From NCBI GenBank assembly GCA_023411175.1, contig JAEYPB010000043.1:19324-83323 (forward strand): DNA of 64,000 nt, in the 5' to 3' direction. Numbering within the stretch: position 1 is the first letter of the stretch; each line of letters opens with the position of its first letter. The DNA is from Bacillota bacterium (GTDB lineage: Bacteria; Bacillota; Clostridia; Christensenellales; Aristaeellaceae). The position numbers and the translations under genes are program-made. Below are positions 18,528 to 28,092 of this stretch, piece after piece. The notes beneath the pieces were generated by a model that did not search any database, was not told where the DNA came from, and saw only the letters and a list, made by a program, of their open reading frames with translations.

Positions 18528-18959
18528 TTATACGGCGGTCTCAAGAAGAAAACGAATCGCGTCCACATACCCCTGAAAGCCCTGCCCGGCGATTTTTGTC
18601 CGGCACGCGGCGGTCACATAGGAAACCTTGCGGAACGCCTCCCGCGAATCTACGTCGGAGATGTGCACCTCCACCGCCGGGAGACCCACCGCCTTGAGCG
18701 CGTCCAGGATCGCCACGGAGGTATGGGTATAGGCCGCCGGGTTGATGACGATGCCGTCGAACGCGCCGTAAGCGGCCTGAATTTCGTCCACGATGGCGCC
18801 CTCATGGTTGGACTGAAAGCACTTGACCGCAACGCACATGTCCCGGGCGGCGGCCTCGATCTCCGAAACGAGGTCCCCATAGGTCTTCCGGCCATAAATG
18901 TCCGGCTCCCGTATACCCAGCATGTTGAGATTGGGTCCGTTGATGATAAGAATTTTCAT
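18528..18959 (-). CDS. aroQ: 3-dehydroquinate dehydratase, type II
   Basis: MKILIINGPNLNMLGIREPDIYG...HISD is typical of AroQ. Start set at MKILII. Confidence 0.85.
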   Translation of the reverse strand: MKILIINGPNLNMLGIREPDIYGRKTYGDLVSEIEAAARDMCVAVKCFQSNHEGAIVDEIQAAYGAFDGIVINPAAYTHTSVAILDALKAVGLPAVEVHISDVDSREAFRKVSYVTAACRTKIAGQGFQGYVDAIRFLLETAV

Positions 18960-20188
18960 ACGCGCACCTCTTCCCGAAAGCGTTTGACGACCTCCCCCGC
19001 AGTCTGCGATGGGCATCGCTCGAGGGTCAGGCCGATGTCCCGCGCCGCCGCGTAGAGCGGCGCCCGCGCGGCGTGCATCCTTTCCAGCGCGGGAAGCCCT
19101 GTCGAAAGCGGACGCCCGCCCGTCGAAAGCTCCGAAAGCGGCCGCTCGAGTTGTACCACAAAGCAGTTCGCCCGGAGCAGCGCCCGGTTCTCCGCGCGGA
19201 GCACCGCGCCGCCGCCGGTGGCGATCACCGCGCCCCGGGCCAGCGCCGCCTCCCGGATGGCCGCGGCCTCCAATTCGCGAAAGCGCGCCTCGCCCTCCCG
19301 GGCAAAGATCCCCGGGATCGGCCCGTGCACCGCTTCGATCATCTGGTCCGTGTCAAAAACCTGCCGTCCGAGGAGGCGCGCCACCTCCCGGGCGACCGTG
19401 GACTTTCCGGACCCCGGCATGCCGACGAGGGCGATGGAGCGGGTCTCCCGGGCCAACCACGAAAGCGTGTCCGAAACCCGTTCTTCCGGAACCGGCGCAC
19501 CGAGAAAGCGCCAGGCGCTCGCCGCCGCCTGATGCACCAGCATCGAAAGCCCGCCCACCGCCGTCAGGCCCTTCTCCGCCGCCCGCTGCATCAAAAGCGT
19601 CCGAGCGGGGTTATAGATCACATCCGCGACGCCCTGAAGTCCCTCGATGCGCCCCGGCTCCACCGGCGCAGAGAGCATATCCGGGTACATACCCACGGGC
19701 GTGGCGTTCAAAACGAAATCTGCCCGCAATCTGTAGACCCCTTCGTAGTCGACTTCTCCGTCCCTCGACACCGGGACGGCCTTCGCGCCGAGGTCGTTCA
19801 GCACACAGGCGGCGGTCCTTCCGGTGCCGCCGGTGGCGCCCAGGACGAGCGCGGTCTTCCCGGCGAGGTCAAACCCCTCCAGCATCCTCGTCATGCCGTA
19901 ATGGTCGGTGTTGTGGCCGGTGAGCGCGCCGTCTTTATCAAAATAGAGGGTGTTCACCGCACTGATGCGCTTTGCTTCCTGCGTCAGGCGGTCGCAAAAC
20001 GGGATCACCGCCTGCTTGAAGGGGATGGTCACATTGAGCCCGTCAAAGCCGTGGCCGCGGATAAAGGACTCAAGTTCGCCCGGCGCAAGCTCGATGAGGC
20101 GGTATTCGCAATCGTACAGCCGCTCGTGGATCAGCTTTGAATAGCTGTGGCCCAGCTTGCCGCCGAGAAGCCCGTAAACCTTCGCCAT
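18956..20188 (-). CDS. aroE-aroK: Bifunctional shikimate dehydrogenase / shikimate kinase (AroE-AroK fusion)
   Basis: N-terminal AroE motifs (GLNVTIPFK, NTD). C-terminal shikimate kinase P-loop IALVGMPGSGKSTVAREVA. Confidence 0.85.
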   Translation of the reverse strand: MAKVYGLLGGKLGHSYSKLIHERLYDCEYRLIELAPGELESFIRGHGFDGLNVTIPFKQAVIPFCDRLTQEAKRISAVNTLYFDKDGALTGHNTDHYGMTRMLEGFDLAGKTALVLGATGGTGRTAACVLNDLGAKAVPVSRDGEVDYEGVYRLRADFVLNATPVGMYPDMLSAPVEPGRIEGLQGVADVIYNPARTLLMQRAAEKGLTAVGGLSMLVHQAAASAWRFLGAPVPEERVSDTLSWLARETRSIALVGMPGSGKSTVAREVARLLGRQVFDTDQMIEAVHGPIPGIFAREGEARFRELEAAAIREAALARGAVIATGGGAVLRAENRALLRANCFVVQLERPLSELSTGGRPLSTGLPALERMHAARAPLYAAARDIGLTLERCPSQTAGEVVKRFREEVRV

Positions 20189-20189
20189 G

Positions 20190-21329
20190 TCACACCTCGC
20201 TGTAATTGCCCAGGAACGTGAGGCCGCCGGACTGGCTGAGCTCTGACAGGAGCAGCTTCACATCCCGGTCAACCACCGAGCCCTCGAAGTCGAAGTAGAA
20301 CATGAACTCGAAGTCCCTGCCGGGGATGGGGCGGCTCTCCAGCTTCAGAAGGTTCAGCCCCTCCACCGCGAAGCGCGCCACCGTGCGGTAGAGCGAGCCC
20401 GGCGTATGGGGCAGCGATGCCATGATGCTGATGCGGTTGGCGCCCGGGTACACCTCCATCTCGCGGGAGATGCAGATGAAGCGGGTGTAGTTGCTGCCGT
20501 CGTCCATGATGCGCTCTTCAAGCGGCGTAAGGCTGTAGAGCTCGGCGTTTCGCGCCGAGGCGATGGCCGCGACGTCCCTGCGCCCGGATTCAGACACGTA
20601 CCGCGCGGCGGTGGCGTTGTTGGCGTAGGGCGTCAGCTTCACATCCTTGAGCCCAGAGAGGAAGCGACCGCACTGCCGGAGCGCCTGCTCGTGGGCGACG
20701 ACCTCTTTGATTTCGGAGAGCTTCACGCCCGGCGCCACCAGAAGGCGGTGCTCGATGCGCAGCTTCACGGACCGCGCAATGAAGAATTTATGCGCCTTCA
20801 TCAGGTCATATACATCGGTGACAGAGCCTGCGAGGCTGTTTTCCAGCGGCAGCACGCCGTAGCGGCACATGCCCTTCTCCACCGCCTGGAACACGCCTTC
20901 GAAGCCCGAGAAGTAGAGGATGCCGGGCATGTTGAACATCACGTCGCAGGCCTGCTGCGAGTAGGCGCCCTCCGCGCCCTGACAGGCCACCAGCGCGTTC
21001 TTGGGAAAGAGCTTGGGCGTAGCGGCCACCGCCGCGTCGAGGGCGTCGGCAAAGGATTCCGCTTCCGGCCTCATCAGCTTTGACTGGGCGCTTCTGCTGA
21101 GGTCAAAGAGCAGCGCGTAGATCAGCTTCAGGTCGGGCTCGTAGATCGGGTCATGGGCGGCGGTCAACCGCTGCAGGATGGCGCGCTCCCGGCCGGGGTC
21201 GGAGATCGCGATGCCGCCGGCCCGCTTGGCCTCCACGATGTCCCGCACGGTCTGCATCCTCTTGACGTACAAATCCGCCATCTGGTCGTCGATCTGGTCA
21301 ATCCGGGCGCGGAGTTCGTTCATATCCAT
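20190..21329 (-). CDS. pheA: Chorismate mutase / prephenate dehydratase (P-protein)
   Basis: N-terminal chorismate mutase helix (LRARIDQIDDQMADLYVKRM), PDT domain and a C-terminal ACT domain (ESRPIPGRDFEFMFYFDFEG). Confidence 0.85.
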   Translation of the reverse strand: MDMNELRARIDQIDDQMADLYVKRMQTVRDIVEAKRAGGIAISDPGRERAILQRLTAAHDPIYEPDLKLIYALLFDLSRSAQSKLMRPEAESFADALDAAVAATPKLFPKNALVACQGAEGAYSQQACDVMFNMPGILYFSGFEGVFQAVEKGMCRYGVLPLENSLAGSVTDVYDLMKAHKFFIARSVKLRIEHRLLVAPGVKLSEIKEVVAHEQALRQCGRFLSGLKDVKLTPYANNATAARYVSESGRRDVAAIASARNAELYSLTPLEERIMDDGSNYTRFICISREMEVYPGANRISIMASLPHTPGSLYRTVARFAVEGLNLLKLESRPIPGRDFEFMFYFDFEGSVVDRDVKLLLSELSQSGGLTFLGNYSEV

Positions 21330-21363
21330 TTGAGATTACCTCCCTTATATACATATACGGTGA

Positions 21364-22434
21364 TTAGATCTTTTGTCCGGAACGGATCATGTAAAGATCG
21401 ATGAGTGCCAGCGCCGCCATCGCCTCCACGACGGGCACGGCTCTCGGCACCACGCAGGGGTCGTGCCGCCCGCCCACGGAGAGGGTTTCCTCGCGCATCT
21501 CGGCCAGGTTCACGGTGCGCTGGGGCTTTGCGATGGACGAGGTGGGCTTGAAGGCCACCCGGAACACCACGGGCATGCCGGTGGTGATGCCGCCCAAGAC
21601 GCCCGCGTGCCGGTTCGAGCCTGTCAGAATCCGTCCGTTTTCGACGACAAAGGCGTCGTTGTGGGTGCTGCCGCGCATCCGGGCGGCGGCGAAGCCCGCG
21701 CCGAACTCCACGCCGCGAACCGCGGGGATTGAAAACATCAGCCGCGCAAGCGTGCTCTCGACGCTGTCCATCATCGGCTCGCCGAGGCCCGCCGGCAGGC
21801 CCTCCGCCACGCATTCGACGACGCCACCCACCGAGTCGCCGTCGAGGCGCGCCCGTTCGACGGCCTCGCGCATCATGACGCCCGCGCGATCGTCGAAGAC
21901 CGGAAACTCCTTCGCTTCCACGGCGGCGAGGTCGCCCTCGAAGGCATCCAGAATGCCGCCGATTTCGTAGATGCGCGCGCGGACAACGATGCCGCGCCGC
22001 TCCAGAATCTGCTTTGCCACGGCCCCCGCGAAGCAGATGGGCGCGGTGAGCCGCCCGGAGAAGTGCCCGCCGCCGCGAAGGTCCACGCTATCGCCGTACT
22101 TGACGCGGGCGGTGAAGTCCGCGTGTCCGGGGCGCGGCAGGTTTTTCAGCGCGTCGTAGTCGCCCGAGCGCTGGTCGGTGTTCTCAATCAAGGCCATGAG
22201 CGGCGCGCCGCAGGTCTTGCCGTCCACAAAGCCGGAGAGCACCTTCGGCTCGTCCGGCTCGCGCCGCTTGGTGGCATGCGCGGCGTTTCCCGGCGCGCGG
22301 CGGCGCATGAAGGCGTGCACGCGCTCCATGTCAATGGCTTCACCCGACGGCAACCCGTCCACCACCGCGCCGATGGCCTCGCTGTGCGACTGGCCGAATA
22401 CGCTGACCTTAACGATCGTCCCAAAGCTGGATGA
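21364..22434 (-). CDS. aroC: Chorismate synthase
   Basis: GTIVKVSVFGQSHSEAIGAVVDGLPSG and other AroC motifs. Start set at MSSSFG. Confidence 0.9.
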   Translation of the reverse strand, partial: SSSFGTIVKVSVFGQSHSEAIGAVVDGLPSGEAIDMERVHAFMRRRAPGNAAHATKRREPDEPKVLSGFVDGKTCGAPLMALIENTDQRSGDYDALKNLPRPGHADFTARVKYGDSVDLRGGGHFSGRLTAPICFAGAVAKQILERRGIVVRARIYEIGGILDAFEGDLAAVEAKEFPVFDDRAGVMMREAVERARLDGDSVGGVVECVAEGLPAGLGEPMMDSVESTLARLMFSIPAVRGVEFGAGFAAARMRGSTHNDAFVVENGRILTGSNRHAGVLGGITTGMPVVFRVAFKPTSSIAKPQRTVNLAEMREETLSVGGRHDPCVVPRAVPVVEAMAALALIDLYMIRSGQKI

Positions 22435-23611
22435 CATCCGAATCTCCCCCCAGTCTATTGAAATCTTCAAAGAACGTTGGATAGGATTTATTCACCGCTT
22501 CCGCCCCCAGAATCGTCACCGGGCCACGGCAGCGGGTACCCGCGATGGCGAAAGCCATCGCGATCCGGTGGTCGCCCGCCGCGTCTACGGTGCCGCCCTC
22601 GGGCATCCGCGCGCAGCGCACGATGAGTCCGTCCGCCAATTCGTCGCAATCGCCGCCGATGGCGCGAATGCCCTCCGCCATCGCGCGGAGCCTGTCGCTC
22701 TCCTTGATGCGCAGCCGCGCCGCGCCGGAAAACCGCGTCTCTCCCGGCGTCAAGGCCGCCACCGCCGCGAGAATGGGCAGAAGGTCCGGCGTCTCCCGCA
22801 CGTCCAACTCGCGGCGCTCCGCGTTAAGCGCCGCCAGCATGGCGCGGATCGCCCGGTCAGGCTGGGCGGAGTCCTCATCGAGGCCGTCCACCTGCGCCCC
22901 CGCCGCGAGAAAAAACGCGGCGTTCGACCAGTCGCCCTCTACGGCCAGTGCGCCCGGCGATCGGTAGCGCGCGGCGGGCACCGTCCAGCCGTCCACGTTT
23001 TCCAGGACGCGTACGCCAAAGCGCGCCATGGCGGAGACCGTCATGCGTACATAGCCCGCGGATTCAAGGGGCGTGGTCAAATGGATGCGGCCGCCGCCAA
23101 CCAGCGGCAGCGCCATCAAAAGGCCTGTGATGAATTGGGAGCTGACGTCCCCCGGCAGGCGGAAGTCGCCACCGGTCAGCCGCCCGGAGAGTGTGAAGGG
23201 CAGTTTTTCCCCGTCGAATGCGCAGCCGTGTGCGGCGAGAGCCTCTACGAGGGGGCCCAGCGGCCGCTCCGGCAGCCTGCCCCGGCCCGCAAAGCGGGTA
23301 GGCACGCCCAAGGCGGCGGCGAGGGGAATCAAGAATCTCAGCGTGGAGCCGCTCTCGCGGCAGTCCGCCGCGCCGCAGGGCGGGAATGCGCCCGGCTTTA
23401 TGAGAAAGCCTCCGGGTACGGTTTCGTGGGATGCGCCCAGCGCGGGAAGACAGGAAAGGGTCGCGTCGATGTCGTCGGAGTGCGCCTCCGGGGAAATATG
23501 GGTGGGGCCGTCCGACAGCGCCGAGAGCATCAGCGCCCGGTGCGCCGCGGACTTTGAGACGATGGCCTCCACGCGCCCGGAGAGCGCGCCGGGTCGCACC
23601 CGGGCGATCAT
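22409..23611 (-). CDS. aroA: 3-phosphoshikimate 1-carboxyvinyltransferase (EPSP synthase)
   Basis: 400 aa with the EPSP synthase fold signature (KSAAHRALMLSAL..., LRIKESDR). Confidence 0.9.
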   Translation of the reverse strand: MIARVRPGALSGRVEAIVSKSAAHRALMLSALSDGPTHISPEAHSDDIDATLSCLPALGASHETVPGGFLIKPGAFPPCGAADCRESGSTLRFLIPLAAALGVPTRFAGRGRLPERPLGPLVEALAAHGCAFDGEKLPFTLSGRLTGGDFRLPGDVSSQFITGLLMALPLVGGGRIHLTTPLESAGYVRMTVSAMARFGVRVLENVDGWTVPAARYRSPGALAVEGDWSNAAFFLAAGAQVDGLDEDSAQPDRAIRAMLAALNAERRELDVRETPDLLPILAAVAALTPGETRFSGAARLRIKESDRLRAMAEGIRAIGGDCDELADGLIVRCARMPEGGTVDAAGDHRIAMAFAIAGTRCRGPVTILGAEAVNKSYPTFFEDFNRLGGDSDVIQLWDDR

Positions 23612-24663
23612 GCGCCCTCCAGCGCGCGGGCGAGAAAGCCGCCCAGCGCGTCCACATCGATTTCATAAAGCGCCGAGTGGCCGACGCGCTTTGGCAGCGC
23701 CAGCGCGATGCGCCCGGAGCGCACCTTTTTATCCCGGAGCATCGCCTCGAGCAGCGCCTCCGCCGGGTAGGGGCAATCCGTCGGCAGGCCGTTTTTGACC
23801 AGCGCGCGCCGGATGGGCTCGGCGCAGTCTTCCTCCGAAAAACCAGCGGCCATCGCGCCCCGCGCCTCGGCCAGCATGCCGATCGCCACCGCGCGGCCGT
23901 GGGAGATTTCGTAGCCGCTGGAGCGCTCGACGGCGTGGCCGATGGTGTGGCCGAGGTTCAAAAGCTGCCGCGCACCGGTGTCGCGCTCGTCGCGCTCCAC
24001 CAGGTCCCGCTTCATCGAGACGCATCGGGCGATGATCGCTTCCGCCCCGGCGAGATCGAAGCCTTGCGCCAGGGCGTCGAAGAGCGCCTTGTCCGAGATC
24101 ACGCCACACTTGATCGCCTCGCTGACGCCGTCCGCCAACACATCCCGGGGGAGTGTCATAAGGGCCTCCGGGTCAATCAGCACAAAAGCCGGCTGATGGA
24201 ACGCGCCCGCGAGGTTCTTCCCCGCCGCGAGGTTCACCGCGGTCTTGCCGCCCACGGAGGCGTCCACCATCGCGAGCAGCGTGGTCGGCACCTGCACAAA
24301 GGGGATGCCCCGAAGGTAGACCGCCGCCGCGAAGCCGGTCAAATCGCCGGTCACGCCGCCGCCGAGGGCGACCAGCATGTCGCCGCGGCTGAGCTTCCGC
24401 TCCGCGAGGAATTCCAGAAGCTCAAACAGCGTCCGGCCGCTCTTTGCCGCTTCGCCGCCAGGGAAGGTCCAGCGCTCGACGCGCACGCCCGCCGCCCGGA
24501 GGCTCTCCGCGACCAGGTCGCCATAGAGCGCGTCCACGGCATCCTCCGCGACCAGCGCCGCGGCTCTGGGCAGACTGGGCATCAGCGCCCCGAGCCGTGC
24601 CATCGATCCGGACTCGACGCGAACCGTGTATTCGCCGGACGCGCGCACCTTGATCTCCGTCAT
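23608..24663 (-). CDS. aroB: 3-dehydroquinate synthase
   Basis: GGGVTGDLTGFAAAVYLRGIPFVQVPTTLLAMVDASVGGKT. Start set at MTEIKV, overlapping the tyrA stop. Confidence 0.85.
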   Translation of the reverse strand: MTEIKVRASGEYTVRVESGSMARLGALMPSLPRAAALVAEDAVDALYGDLVAESLRAAGVRVERWTFPGGEAAKSGRTLFELLEFLAERKLSRGDMLVALGGGVTGDLTGFAAAVYLRGIPFVQVPTTLLAMVDASVGGKTAVNLAAGKNLAGAFHQPAFVLIDPEALMTLPRDVLADGVSEAIKCGVISDKALFDALAQGFDLAGAEAIIARCVSMKRDLVERDERDTGARQLLNLGHTIGHAVERSSGYEISHGRAVAIGMLAEARGAMAAGFSEEDCAEPIRRALVKNGLPTDCPYPAEALLEAMLRDKKVRSGRIALALPKRVGHSALYEIDVDALGGFLARALEGA

Positions 24664-25508
24664 GCCTTTCCCTCCCCCTCGATGAGCTGAAGCTTGCGCC
24701 GGTTGCCCTCGTCCAGAAGCGCGCGCAGCCGCGCCAGATCCCGCCCGTCCACCGCCCGCCTGATCTCCGTGAGCCTTGCGATCAACCCGCCCAACTCGTC
24801 GCTCAATGCGTCGCGGTTCAGGTCGAACAGCTCCGCCCACATGTCGGCGTCGAGACGCGCCACCCGCGTCATATCCCGGAAGCTGCCCGCGGAAAAGCCC
24901 TGATGGCCGGGTGCGGCAGGGCTCATCACATAGGCCGACGACGCCGCGTGGGCAAGCTGCGACGTGTAGGCGATCATGCGGTCATGCGCCTCCGGCGTCG
25001 TGACCACGGTGCGGCCAAAGCCCATGGCCCTTGCGATGTCCGAGAGCGCCTCCGTCGCGCCGCAGGGGCGTCCGTCCGAAGGCGTCATGATCAGCGAAGC
25101 GCCCCGGAACAGCCCGGCATCGGCATTCGCGTACCCGCCGACCTCGCGCCCGGCCATCGGATGCGCGCCGACGTAGCGCACGCCCCGGTCGCGGGCGACG
25201 GGCTCGACCTCCCGCACCACGTAGCGCTTGACGCCGCAGAAATCCGCCGCCAGCGCGCCCGGCTTCATTCTGGGGAGCGCGCGCTTCAAAAACGCCACCG
25301 CGTCCTGGGGCCTGAGCGCCACGATGACCAGGTCGGCCTCCGGAAGGTCTTCCGGCAGGAAGGCCGCGCGGATCGCACCGTCCGAGAGCGCCCGGCGGAC
25401 GACGCCGAGGTCCTTGTCGCAGCCGATGACCTCCATATCGGTGTTTGCGGCCAGCGCCTTCGCCACCGAGCCGCCGATCAGCCCCAGCCCGACGACAATT
25501 GCTTTCAT
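24660..25508 (-). CDS. tyrA: Prephenate dehydrogenase
   Basis: Rossmann N-terminus MKAIVVGLGLIGGSVAKAL. PDH domain. Confidence 0.85.
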   Translation of the reverse strand: MKAIVVGLGLIGGSVAKALAANTDMEVIGCDKDLGVVRRALSDGAIRAAFLPEDLPEADLVIVALRPQDAVAFLKRALPRMKPGALAADFCGVKRYVVREVEPVARDRGVRYVGAHPMAGREVGGYANADAGLFRGASLIMTPSDGRPCGATEALSDIARAMGFGRTVVTTPEAHDRMIAYTSQLAHAASSAYVMSPAAPGHQGFSAGSFRDMTRVARLDADMWAELFDLNRDALSDELGGLIARLTEIRRAVDGRDLARLRALLDEGNRRKLQLIEGEGKA

Positions 25509-26518
25509 GCGTCCACCCCGACCGCCGCGGCGCGCACCGTCATGATCTTGGGCACGAGTCTGTCGAAGGCTTCCGGCGTCAGCGACTGGGGGCCGTCGGA
25601 CATCGCGTGCTCCGGGTCGTTGTGCACCTCGATCATCAGCCCATCCGCGCCGCAGGCGACGCTCGCCATGGCCAGCGGTTCCACGAAGCGGGAAATGCCG
25701 GTTGCGTGGCTGGGATCGACGACGATGGGCAGATGGGTCAGGTGTTTCAGGACCGGCACCGCCGAGATGTCGAGCGTGTTCCTTGTGGCGGTTTCAAAGG
25801 TGCGGATACCCCGCTCGCACAGGATCACCTGCTCGTTCCCGCCCGCCATGATGTACTCGGCGCTCATTAAGAGCTCCTGAAGCGTGCTCGCAAGGCCGCG
25901 CTTTAAGAGGATCGGCTTTCGAAGCAGGCCCAATTCCTTCAAAAGCTCGAAGTTCTGCATGTTGCGCGCGCCCACCTGAATCACATCCACATCCTTGAAG
26001 AGCGGGATGTGGGCGGCGTCCATGAGTTCCGTCACGATGGGAAGGCCGGTGGCCGCCTTGGCCTCCAGAAGAAGGTCGATGCCCTCCTTGTGCAGCCCCT
26101 GGAACGCGTAGGGCGAAGTGCGCGGTTTGAACGCGCCGCCCCGGAGGAGCCCCGCGCCGGCATCCCGGACGCGCTTTGCCACTTCCACAATCTGCGCCTT
26201 GTTCTCCACCGAGCAAGGGCCCGCGATGATTTGGAAATGGCCGCCGCCGATCTTGACGCCGCCGATGTCCACGACGGTGTCCGCCGGATGGAATTTCCGG
26301 TTGGCGCTCTTGTAGGGCTCCTGAATCCTGCGCACGTCTTCAACAATTTCCAGCGCGCGGATCAGGTCCATGTCCACCCGGGTGGTGTCGCCCACCAGGC
26401 CCACGATCGTCTGCTGTTTGCCCTCGGAAAGATGCGTCTCCAGCCCCATGCCGTGAAGCCAGTTCAGAAAGTTGTTCATCTGTGCCTTATCGGTTTTTCC
26501 CTTCAGGATGACGACCAT
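25505..26518 (-). CDS. aroF: 3-deoxy-7-phosphoheptulonate (DAHP) synthase, class I-beta with an N-terminal ferredoxin-like regulatory domain
   Basis: KDO8P/DAHPS TIM-barrel motifs (LLRGGAFKPRTSPY, GLPIVTE). RBS AAAGGAGGGG. Confidence 0.9.
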   Translation of the reverse strand: MVVILKGKTDKAQMNNFLNWLHGMGLETHLSEGKQQTIVGLVGDTTRVDMDLIRALEIVEDVRRIQEPYKSANRKFHPADTVVDIGGVKIGGGHFQIIAGPCSVENKAQIVEVAKRVRDAGAGLLRGGAFKPRTSPYAFQGLHKEGIDLLLEAKAATGLPIVTELMDAAHIPLFKDVDVIQVGARNMQNFELLKELGLLRKPILLKRGLASTLQELLMSAEYIMAGGNEQVILCERGIRTFETATRNTLDISAVPVLKHLTHLPIVVDPSHATGISRFVEPLAMASVACGADGLMIEVHNDPEHAMSDGPQSLTPEAFDRLVPKIMTVRAAAVGVDA

Positions 26519-26546
26519 CGTATTCCCCTCCTTTTGAAATAAAAGA

Positions 26547-26570
26547 GCCCCGCAGCGCTGGCTGCGGGGC
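26547..26570 (-). terminator. Attenuator terminator of the aro operon leader: a perfect 10-bp GC stem with a 4-nt loop, followed by a U-run on the transcribed strand and then immediately by the aroF RBS
   Basis: GCCCCGCAGC-CAGC-GCTGCGGGGC, then UCUUUUAUUU (minus-strand sense). Confidence 0.6.
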
Positions 26571-26590
26571 CTCGTTGAACCGGTCTAGCG

Positions 26591-26659
26591 GTTCATGCAG
26601 TCATGCGCAAAAGACCTTGCCGGTAAAGCCGGCAAAGTAATACGCGTAAAACCGCACGA
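26591..26659 (-). CDS. Aro operon leader peptide, 22 aa: MQQFVRFYAYYFAGFTGKVFCA (5 Phe and 3 Tyr)
   Basis: Reverse-complement reading gives RBS GGAGG 8 nt upstream of the ATG. The ORF ends 20 nt before the terminator hairpin and lies downstream of a consensus promoter. Confidence 0.55.
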
Positions 26660-26688
26660 ACTGTTGCATACAGGGTACCTCCGTAATG

Positions 26689-26717
26689 GATTGGAATCAT
26701 TATAAACGCTCAAAATC
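26689..26717 (-). promoter_or_regulatory. Consensus sigma-A promoter (TTGACA, 17-bp spacer, TATAAT) driving the aro leader and operon
   Basis: The minus-strand sense reads TTGACAgcgggattttgagcgttTATAAT. Confidence 0.55.
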
Positions 26718-26763
26718 CCGCTGTCAACGCGAATTTGCGCTTTTTTCAAGGTGCGACATTATT

Positions 26764-27921
26764 TTACACCAGCCGGTCCAGCGTCAGGCCGTCTTCCGGG
26801 ATAAAGGCGCGCCAGTAGGCCACGCTCTCGCGGATGCGCTGAAGTACGGCGCGGTTGATGTCGGCGGTGCCGGTGAAGATCTCAAGCGTCAGGTAGAGAT
26901 CCGGGAGCAGCGGCGGCAGCCCTTCGGCGGGCGCGGCGTCGTAATGCGCCTTGATGGCGCGGAGCACCTTTTCCGGCTCGACGATGCCACGGGCATTGTT
27001 CTCCTTCGTAAACGCCCAGTGGGGGGACGAAGTGGCGTTCGCCTGCTGCAGGTGGATGATGGGCGAATAGCCCGCGAGCCGCTCGAGCCAGCGGTAGGGA
27101 TCGCCGTCCTCCGCGGGCGCGAACATGTGCGGGTATTCGTCCATCAGCGCGTTGATCTCATTGAGTGGCAGCGAGTCCGAATTTTCGAACAGCTTAACGG
27201 CCTTCTTCGGCCCAAGCCAAAGCTCCGGAACCGGGTCGCCCGCCTTGTACCGCGCGTGCATTTCAAGAATTCTTTCGTCGTCGGGGCGCGAGAATTTTCG
27301 CTGCCCGTTCATGTGGCCCACGTCCACCGTCAGGTAGAACGGCGCGCCGCCGATCAGGTACACCTCGCGCAAAAGCTTCTCCGAGCCCTCGACCGTCCAG
27401 GGAATCTGGTGGGGCGTGTACATCTGCTCCACGCCCAGAATGCCCAGCCCCTCCGCCGCCCCAAAGGCGGCGAGCTCCGCAAGATCCCGGTACAGCGTGT
27501 GCTCGGCCTCGGCGTACTTCTGGGGATCCTGCAGCACGGAATCGGTGAACGCGTGGCAGTAGAAGCCCAGCCCCGCCCCGACGGAAGCGGCGGTCTTCGC
27601 CATGGGCTTGAGCCATTTGTTCAAGAATCTGTCCCGGACGATGGGATGGGTGTGGCTGAGCCCCAGCGTGGCGTAGGTGCCGTGGCCGGAGTAGAGGTTC
27701 GCCACCACAATGCCGGTCGCGGCCATCGCCTTCTTCACCTCGCCCGACCACCAGGAGAGGTACTCCTGCCCCATGTACATCGGGTCACACTCATTGTCGG
27801 CGCTGGCCTCCACATAGGTGAGCCCCAGATCGCGGATGACCTCCGCCCACTCGGAAGGATGGGTATACCGCTTGGACGCAAAGCAGTTGTCGATCGCGAG
27901 GTAGATCTTCGGATAGCGCAT
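26764..27921 (-). CDS. Sugar phosphate isomerase/epimerase family protein (xylose isomerase-like TIM barrel)
   Basis: 386 aa. Weak family resemblance only. Start set at the ATG preceded by AAAGGA. Confidence 0.7.
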   Translation of the reverse strand: MRYPKIYLAIDNCFASKRYTHPSEWAEVIRDLGLTYVEASADNECDPMYMGQEYLSWWSGEVKKAMAATGIVVANLYSGHGTYATLGLSHTHPIVRDRFLNKWLKPMAKTAASVGAGLGFYCHAFTDSVLQDPQKYAEAEHTLYRDLAELAAFGAAEGLGILGVEQMYTPHQIPWTVEGSEKLLREVYLIGGAPFYLTVDVGHMNGQRKFSRPDDERILEMHARYKAGDPVPELWLGPKKAVKLFENSDSLPLNEINALMDEYPHMFAPAEDGDPYRWLERLAGYSPIIHLQQANATSSPHWAFTKENNARGIVEPEKVLRAIKAHYDAAPAEGLPPLLPDLYLTLEIFTGTADINRAVLQRIRESVAYWRAFIPEDGLTLDRLV

Positions 27922-28092
27922 GCGCTTCAATCCTTTCAACGGGTGTATGTTCCCGCCCCATCATACACTTGGGATGCTTTGGCTGTCAACCAGAAAAGGC
28001 GCAAACGCCTTGCATGGCGGGCCGGAGTCTGGTATCATGCGAGGGTGGGCGGCACGTCTTCGGAGCCGCACGGCATGTAAGGGGGCGAGCGC

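Follow-up and report, generated by a model that had tools for sequence, protein, structure and literature searches.

How transcription of a set of genes for phenylalanine (Phe) and tyrosine (Tyr) synthesis is adjusted to the supply of these amino acids is the question raised by a locus of a Bacillota bacterium (Clostridia, Christensenellales, Aristaeellaceae; assembly GCA_023411175.1), where eight aromatic amino-acid genes headed by aroF lie behind a short leader. The locus is part of a 64,000-nucleotide (nt) stretch of contig JAEYPB010000043.1 (positions 19,324 to 83,323 of the forward strand). This whole stretch is called the window below, and coordinates are given within it. The organism is known from metagenome-assembled genomes alone. 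An initial annotation, made from the letters alone, had proposed attenuation in the style of the trp and phe leaders. Our analysis supports this proposal. The computable points on which it might have failed, namely conservation of the leader in related genomes and matches to T-box or other riboswitch models, all came out in its favour. We conclude that the locus is very probably a ribosome-mediated, leader-peptide transcription attenuator: it would respond to how far tRNA-Phe and tRNA-Tyr are charged, and thereby set the read-through into the eight-gene operon.

Direct reading of the minus strand recovered every element on which the proposal had been built: a TTGACA-17-TATAAT promoter, a GGAGG ribosome-binding site, a 22-codon open reading frame (ORF) with 8 Phe or Tyr codons, a short hairpin, a terminator with a 10-bp stem and a U-tract (also found by scan), and the aroF ribosome-binding site about 15 nt beyond. 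They had been placed at 26544-26720, which is right except for the -35 box and the last part of the U-tract, both just outside this range. What had been missed is a large hairpin, P1 (26657-26595). All features are collected in Table 1.

Table 1. Elements of the aroF leader and its operon, in window coordinates (SD, Shine-Dalgarno sequence; MFE, minimum free energy).
Feature	Positions	Strand	Basis and remarks
-35 hexamer TTGACA	26722..26727	-	direct reading; 17-nt spacer to the -10 hexamer
-10 hexamer TATAAT	26699..26704	-	direct reading
Leader-ORF SD GGAGG	26678..26682	-	8 nt ahead of the ATG
Leader ORF, 22 codons + TGA	26601..26669	-	ATG at 26669, TGA at 26603-26601; encodes MQQFVRFYAYYFAGFTGKVFCA
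P1, 1:2 'protector' hairpin	26595..26657	-	MFE and alifold predictions; -33.1 kcal/mol
Candidate region 2, GCAUGACUGC	26597..26606	-	alifold, ribosome footprint masked; includes the stop codon of the leader ORF
P2, small hairpin GAACCG / CUAGAC / CGGUUC	26577..26594	-	past the leader stop codon, ahead of the terminator
Intrinsic terminator hairpin (regions 3:4)	26546..26571	-	GGCCCCGCAGC, loop CAGC, GCUGCGGGGCU
U-tract CUUUUAUUU	26537..26545	-	direct reading
aroF SD GGAGG, inside AAAAGGAGGGG	26527..26531	-	about 15 nt past the terminator; aroF ATG at 26518
Regulated operon, eight genes	18528..26518	-	ORF list and Pfam domains

The leader promoter matches the consensus at 12 of 12 positions and was the top promoter-like site in a consensus scan of 12.5 kb. 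The terminator hairpin was the strongest terminator-like site in 12.5 kb; its stem is made of 10 perfect pairs and one G-U pair, 11 in all, of which 9 are G-C (-23.8 kcal/mol). The encoded peptide, MQQFVRFYAYYFAGFTGKVFCA, has 5 Phe and 3 Tyr among its 22 residues, and no Trp (tryptophan) codon is present. The regulatory Phe/Tyr codons are numbers 7, 8, 10, 11, 12 and 15. This ORF, separated from aroF by 82 nt, was the sole one of 8-45 amino acids with at least 5 Phe/Tyr per 8 residues on both strands of the 64-kb window. Codons 5-14, including Phe/Tyr codons, make up the 5′ strand of P1, and the stop codon lies within its 3′ strand; the apical P1 stem (CUUUGCCGG/CCGGCAAGG) is common to other leader subfamilies. 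Further downstream, the 5′ strand of P2 would be covered by a ribosome standing on the leader stop codon. Taken as a whole, the 182-nt leader folds at -80 kcal/mol, with z = -6.2 compared to dinucleotide shuffles.

The operon itself is as announced in the initial annotation. Pfam domains gave the order aroF, tyrA, aroB, aroA, aroC, pheA, aroE-aroK, aroQ. The corresponding products are 3-deoxy-D-arabino-heptulosonate 7-phosphate (DAHP) synthase with an FXD domain, prephenate dehydrogenase, 3-dehydroquinate synthase, 5-enolpyruvylshikimate 3-phosphate synthase, chorismate synthase, chorismate mutase-prephenate dehydratase, a shikimate dehydrogenase-kinase fusion and type II dehydroquinase. The genes are tightly packed, overlapping or abutting. 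No Trp-branch gene was found by Pfam among the eight, which agrees with a leader having Phe and Tyr codons and no Trp codon.

Related loci were collected by an AroF protein scan of species-representative genomes. At least 80 loci were listed, at 64-74% identity, nearly all of them from Clostridia isolates or metagenome-assembled genomes (MAGs); no relative above 74% AroF identity was among the matches listed, and closer ones were collected separately (see below). A mini-ORF was scored when it started with ATG, encoded 8-45 amino acids with at least 5 Phe/Tyr in 8 residues, and lay within 350 nt upstream of aroF. Such an ORF was present on the sense strand in 61 of the 78 listed loci with enough flanking sequence, against 2 of 78 on the reverse strand and 1% of dinucleotide shuffles. 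The loci bearing a leader include Oscillospiraceae, Lachnospiraceae, Christensenellaceae, Anaerovoracaceae and others, and the 61 have almost no nucleotide sequence in common. Typical peptides elsewhere in the family are MKTLNFAAEYFYFSFYFTKSK..., MKNSYSNASYFYFYYYFTYNR and MLRRYFGYYYCVLFQ. When the 14-residue cores of 64 leaders were taken together, Phe and Tyr each amounted to 26% of residues and Trp to 0.3%. A core that is rich in Phe and Tyr and nearly devoid of Trp fits an operon making Phe and Tyr, not Trp.

A hairpin followed by a T-tract was found 3′ of the Phe/Tyr run in all 64 detected leaders. In nearly all of them it is strong (-10 to -28 kcal/mol) and sited between the ORF and aroF. 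As for the 17 loci without a leader, aroF was inside an operon in 5, the flank was too short in 2, and weaker Phe/Tyr ORFs were present in 2. The leader of the window is part of a large, widespread and apparently undescribed family, which heads most of the sampled Clostridia aroF operons. Cultured relatives with this type of leader include Angelakisella massiliensis (L007) and Hominicoprocola fusiformis (L033).

Clostridia-like AroF proteins (64-68% identity) were also seen in MAGs assigned to other phyla: locus L080 (Victivallales), loci L031, L032 and L075 (Spirochaetes) and locus L038 (Bacteroidaceae). A Tyr-rich leader (MNRNYWRYLYTYSYRFYF...) and a terminator are present at L080; the spirochaete loci have neither. 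Horizontal transfer or mis-binning could explain the presence of such AroF proteins in these MAGs.

The set of close relatives comprised 7 distinct leaders, with AroF 87-100% identical, and locus L115, at 81%. In the 7 close relatives, the -35 and -10 hexamers are invariant and the spacer between them varies. The ATG is kept and preceded in every close relative by an SD-like GGAGG or GAGG. The peptide core SV(R/Q)F(Y/F)A(Y/F)YFA is kept as well, with synonymous and Phe-Tyr exchanges, and codon 15 is Phe or Tyr in every close relative. Insertions were informative. L091 carries 3 additional nt early in the leader ORF, and 3 additional nt in L090 give one extra Tyr codon. In L087 and L089, the frame is changed by a 1-nt insertion past codon 15, and the stop is provided by a second GCAUGA located 9 nt farther on. 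The use of this second UGA means that frameshifts 3′ of the Phe/Tyr run are tolerated by the leader. Given that indels up to the Phe/Tyr run are in frame and that the later frameshift is tolerated, selection acts on the Phe/Tyr codons as codons, but on the 3′ half of the ORF at the RNA level. In the window, the segment GCAUGACUGCAUGA (26594-26606, minus strand) contains UGA stops in two frames, 9 nt apart.

At the level of structure, P1, P2 and the terminator together were 93% paired over the 7 sequences, and P1 alone had 94-96% of cells paired. Compensatory changes were seen among close relatives at three terminator pairs (e.g. GGUCCC/GGGACC in L090) and at one P2 pair. The terminator loop is conserved as CAGC, CAAGC or CAGGC; the P2 loop is freely variable. 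A metagenome pattern scan for further members of the window's clade was set aside: among its 15 matches 1 was real, and it was already known.

A second pairing concerns the aroF ribosome-binding site. The end of the terminator 3′ arm together with the U-tract (CUCUUUU) is complementary to the purine run of the aroF SD, AAAAGGAG (window 26527-26545, minus strand). Hairpins of this kind, of -5.5 to -11 kcal/mol, were predicted in 6 of 8 close relatives, the region having been noted in the window and in L087, L089, L091, L095 and L115. The pairing could partially mask the aroF ribosome-binding site on read-through RNA, or just as well arise simply because a C/U-rich terminator tail and an A/G-rich ribosome-binding site are neighbours.

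We asked whether the leader belongs to a known RNA family. Searches with Rfam 15 at gathering score gave no match in the window, and no leader match in 38 related loci. The T-box model (RF00230) did not match the leader at E up to 10, nor the window or the 38 loci at gathering score. The match lists at E up to 10 contained none of the Phe, Trp, His, Leu and Thr leaders, nor the Lactococcus leu/phe leader. In leaders bound by TRAP, such as that of the Bacillus trp operon, the antiterminator is overlapped by an array of about 9-11 (G/U)AG triplets with spacings of 2-3 nt. By eye, just three irregularly spaced (G/U)AG triplets lie between the promoter and aroF, so that no TRAP-type array was seen there. 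No T-box or riboswitch covariation model, the alternative that had been named at the outset, thus reached threshold. Since Rfam offered neither a T-box nor any other match and the leader is conserved, we read it as a ribosome-mediated attenuator. The sole gathering-score match in the 38 related loci was a cobalamin riboswitch (RF00174, 32.6 bits) at positions 1968-2104 of L013; this riboswitch is on the other strand, some 900 nt ahead of the aroF leader of that locus, and is unrelated to it.

At E up to 10, the window leader gave noise and two sub-threshold matches that were among the top-scoring ones, to the trpB motif (RF04312, 23.1 bits for a gathering score of 59) and to the aspC motif (RF04313, 17.8 bits for a gathering score of 100). 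Kinship with these two riboswitch candidates was considered and rejected. Besides the scores, the sequence in common with the aspC motif, ACCGCUAGAC, is the P2 loop, which varies freely in close relatives, and representatives of other leader subfamilies gave only noise against Rfam, with no aspC or trpB match. We regard both matches as driven by the terminator and chance. The aspC motif, an orphan 'strong riboswitch candidate' upstream of aminotransferase genes, has a consensus line which reads UAC UGG UUU (Tyr-Trp-Phe) in one frame, with a possible UAA after it and a terminator downstream. Judged from this consensus line alone, RF04313 might be no riboswitch but an attenuator with an aromatic leader peptide.

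The antiterminator pairing was most clearly seen outside the window's own clade. In a sister clade (L002, L010, L011, L017 and L018), the codons just past the Tyr run (ACGUNCUGU) pair with a segment at the end of the ORF, (U/A)GCAGGGCG, and this segment is also complementary to the terminator 5′ arm CGCCCUG(C/U). The resulting 1:2, 2:3 and 3:4 helices are mutually exclusive, and they were 91%, 93% and 100% paired, respectively; antiterminator and terminator have 2 compensatory pairs each. In the subfamily with most members, UUCGCAGCUGAA (the FAAE codons) forms pairs with UUUCACUGCGGAA, itself complementary to the terminator arm ...CUACAGUGAAA.

A similar relation holds over the whole family. 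In 61 loci, the segment freed by stalling paired with its own terminator arm at a mean of -10.9 kcal/mol, and with the arms of other loci at -9.2 kcal/mol. This cognate value was reached in 0 of 10,000 permutations, a result inflated by the presence of close relatives among the loci. A crude three-state model gave a family mean of 5′-arm sequestration of 0.57 without a ribosome, 0.67 with a stalled one and 0.47 with a ribosome at the stop codon. Viewed as predicted helices, the family shows the classical four-region logic of attenuators. Another pairing, between the leader SD and the C-rich terminator 5′ arm, was examined because of L115, where ACGGAG is complementary to CUCCGU. It was rejected family-wide: over 60 loci, matched pairs gave -5.65 kcal/mol and mismatched pairs -5.60 kcal/mol (permutation p = 0.41).

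We propose the following course of events for the window. Transcription would start at the consensus promoter, and the 22-codon ORF would be translated as it emerges. With Phe and Tyr both plentiful, the ribosome would reach the UGA inside the 3′ strand of P1, covering that strand and the start of P2. The 11-bp terminator would then form, and the polymerase would stop at the U-tract, 20-30 nt ahead of aroF. When charged tRNA-Phe or tRNA-Tyr is scarce, the ribosome would instead stall on codons 7-15 and hold the 5′ strand of P1. The freed 3′ strand could then engage the terminator 5′ arm and loop, the terminator would be delayed or prevented, and the polymerase would read through. If no translation took place, P1 would form, and the terminator too. 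We infer that the leader ORF is translated and that ribosomes stall in it. The topology of the window's clade is right for this scheme: a stalled ribosome would free the 3′ strand of P1, one at the stop codon would cover it, and without translation it would stay locked in P1.

For the window's clade, how stalling prevents termination is likewise a step that we infer. The only positionally plausible antiterminator in this clade is a candidate helix between GCAUGACUGC (26606-26597) and GCAGCCAGC (26565-26557), with 8 pairs interrupted twice and about -5 kcal/mol. If formed, it would obstruct terminator nucleation on the loop-proximal side. The conservation of the terminator loop, compared to the variable P2 loop, is in keeping with this helix and mildly suggestive. 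The initial annotation had advised folding the leader in search of mutually exclusive pairings that overlap the Phe/Tyr codons. This yielded the hairpin over these codons and the terminator; the antiterminator of the window's clade did not rise above shuffles, and was clear only in sister clades.

Several results weigh against attenuation by a classical antiterminator in this clade. With alifold, duplexfold and shuffles, its antiterminator was no better than shuffled sequence. The gain from pairing with the arm was -3.9 to -9.6 kcal/mol, and a fraction of 0.23-0.85 of shuffled upstream strands did at least as well. Three different weak registers were found in different relatives, none of them beating shuffles. 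In the permutation test described above for the family, the window scored z = +0.78, which is worse than the average non-cognate pair, and in the three-state model a large stall-specific gain was seen in just 10 of the 61 members. When the 3′ arm was left out, sequestration of the 5′ arm was 0.40 for the free leader, 0.52-0.61 for the stalled one and 0.52 at the stop codon, so that stalling brought no specific sequestration. Covariation cannot support the candidate helix, because it is invariant among the 7 available sequences. Lastly, the terminator formed at equilibrium in every modelled ribosome position (30-nt footprint, every codon); as it always wins, equilibrium folding is uninformative on the kinetic choice.

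These results leave some room for an ORF that is translated and senses Phe and Tyr, but without a classical antiterminator hairpin in the window's clade, an explanation which we consider unlikely. An interrupted helix might slow down terminator nucleation, the terminating ribosome might occlude P2, or control might be partly translational, through the U-tract and the aroF SD. The lack of an above-chance antiterminator in the window's clade, and also in L115 by shuffle comparison, speaks for a route of this kind. So do the terminating ribosome, which would cover the 5′ strand of P2 in both frames used by the relatives and in L115, the retention of the terminator loop (CAGC, CAAGC, CAGGC) beside a freely varying P2 loop, and, in 6 of 8 relatives, the complementarity of the U-tract to the aroF SD region. 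However, sister clades with homologous parts use ordinary 2:3 pairing, and a weak remnant of the same helix is therefore the simpler reading. Kinetic competition, moreover, is beyond the reach of nearest-neighbour models. In evolutionary terms, the window's clade would have lost an ancestral antiterminator, with purifying selection maintaining the Phe/Tyr leader peptide as well as P1, P2 and the terminator, and with a non-classical coupling between stalling and read-through; this we hold to be conceivable though doubtful. The coupling might then be a kinetic block of terminator nucleation by a short helix at the stop codon, or occlusion of P2 by the terminating ribosome. If this were true, leaders that have a canonical antiterminator could be compared, within one natural family, to leaders that lack it.

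Two further explanations dispense with the peptide. The P1-P2-terminator structure might itself sense a ligand, a tRNA or an RNA-binding protein, the ORF being incidental. The leader fold is indeed very stable, it is the RNA and not the peptide that is kept in the 3′ half of the ORF (L087 and L089 tolerate a frameshift), and weak matches below threshold were recorded with trpB RF04312 (23 of 59 bits) and aspC RF04313 (18 of 100). Yet Phe/Tyr enrichment is confined to the frame and strand of the ORF over 61 loci of dissimilar sequence, both SD and ATG are retained, and indels as far as the Phe/Tyr run keep the frame. No T-box or other family was matched in Rfam, other subfamilies gave only noise, the aspC-like CUAGAC sits in a loop that varies freely, and three irregular (G/U)AG triplets make no TRAP-type array. 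A structured RNA of this sort is thus quite improbable. It is highly improbable that the ORF occurs by chance beside a constitutive leaky terminator, or beside a hairpin stabilising the transcript, with no amino-acid sensing. Stable hairpins are plentiful in high-GC genomes, and the antiterminator is not evident. Such an ORF is however the sole one in 64 kb, its position, frame and composition are conserved in 61 of 78 loci against 1% of shuffles, and a phylogenetic footprint covers the promoter hexamers, the SD, the ATG and the Phe/Tyr codons.

The proposed attenuator can be compared to systems already described. Classical leader-peptide attenuation of Phe genes is known in Escherichia coli from pheL-pheA and pheST (PMC11802643), and such attenuators of Enterobacteria follow Yanofsky's trpL model (PMC11802643, PMC9413887). 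As with pheL-pheA and pheM-pheST, a short ORF with a run of cognate codons lies in the 5′ leader of a biosynthetic operon. The window leader also shares with pheL and pheM a hairpin over the cognate codons, a terminator just before the first structural gene, and a stop codon in or next to region 2. It differs from pheL in that it would sense two amino acids, Phe and Tyr, at about 1:1 family-wide, instead of one, and would control the whole common pathway and both branches instead of pheA alone. An antiterminator, moreover, is not demonstrable in the window's clade. In sequence and structure no similarity was seen, as the Rfam matches listed for the window leader at E up to 10 included no Phe leader and no other leader family.

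This design had been described as familiar from Proteobacteria, which holds, but it is not unprecedented elsewhere, with examples at aroF in Corynebacterium glutamicum and Acholeplasma, and in the His leaders of Firmicutes. In C. glutamicum, a Phe-Tyr-Phe leader peptide upstream of aroF, aroR, was first noted in PMC4046766. According to the account of Neshat et al. 2014 given in PMC11802643, ribosome stalling at aroR raises transcription, in response to Phe and not to Tyr. Like the window leader, aroR is a leader peptide with Phe and Tyr codons ahead of a DAHP-synthase operon. It differs by its host, an actinobacterium, by having just three aromatic codons, by the Phe-only response reported for it and by a different operon content; the two were compared by description.

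In Acholeplasma, the uORFC-13-1 motif is a predicted upstream ORF with a promoter, a ribosome-binding site, Phe codon(s) and an adjacent terminator before aroF (PMC8632094). The motif has 24 representatives, from Acholeplasma and environmental DNA only, and encodes at least one Phe (PMC8632094). It resembles the window leader in lying before aroF, in the wider Bacillota/Mycoplasmatota lineage; unlike for the window, no Tyr run is mentioned in the published description, on which the comparison rests. This family was absent from the Rfam results. His leader peptides have been predicted in the Bacillus cereus group, Peptostreptococcaceae and Erysipelotrichales (PMC2965389, PMC9413887). Like the attenuator proposed for the window, they are of the classical leader-peptide type, and they show that this type sporadically takes the place of T-boxes in Firmicutes. 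They concern another amino acid and another operon and have a narrow distribution, whereas the Phe/Tyr leader occurs in most sampled Clostridia aroF loci.

The trpB (RF04312) and aspC (RF04313) motifs were reported as orphan 'strong riboswitch candidates', with a classical attenuator not excluded by the authors in the case of trpB (PMC11109978). Like the window leader, each has a hairpin or a three-way junction with a terminator behind it, and each precedes amino-acid-related genes of Firmicutes. Unlike in true members, the scores of the window leader are far under the gathering thresholds, and the ACCGCUAGAC loop which it shares is not conserved in its relatives. A regulon survey based on Rfam included only His, Trp, Thr and Leu leaders, and treated amino-acid leaders as essentially proteobacterial (PMC3766115). 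We found no description of a Phe/Tyr leader before a Clostridia aro operon in the full-text literature searched, which covers few subscription journals. With no match in Rfam 15 and no description in that literature, the mini-ORFs are probably unannotated in many genomes.

The mechanism itself is textbook, and the value of the observation lies in annotation and in the understanding of aromatic amino-acid control in gut Clostridia. A leader peptide sensing both Phe and Tyr would be added to the known amino-acid attenuators. In most sampled Clostridia lineages, many of them from gut or rumen, it is this leader, and not a T-box or TRAP, that would head the shikimate operon. The proposal predicts how gut commensals may tune the synthesis of aromatic amino acids to supply, and the element, compact and portable, might serve as a Phe/Tyr-responsive part in engineering.

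Some observations concern the neighbourhood of the leader. In L099, whose AroF is 77% identical, an acetyltransferase gene and not tyrA follows aroF, and a Phe/Tyr leader was not found in the 240 nt upstream of aroF. This suggests that the leader goes with the operon arrangement rather than with aroF alone. On the upstream side, the leader is flanked by a xylose-isomerase-like TIM-barrel gene in the window and in L090, and by a GGDEF gene in L087 and L091. In the window this TIM-barrel gene (26764-27939) has upstream of it a second near-consensus promoter on the minus strand, at 27960-28011 (TTGACA, 18 nt, TATGAT; 11 of 12 positions), which is directly preceded by a terminator-like hairpin.

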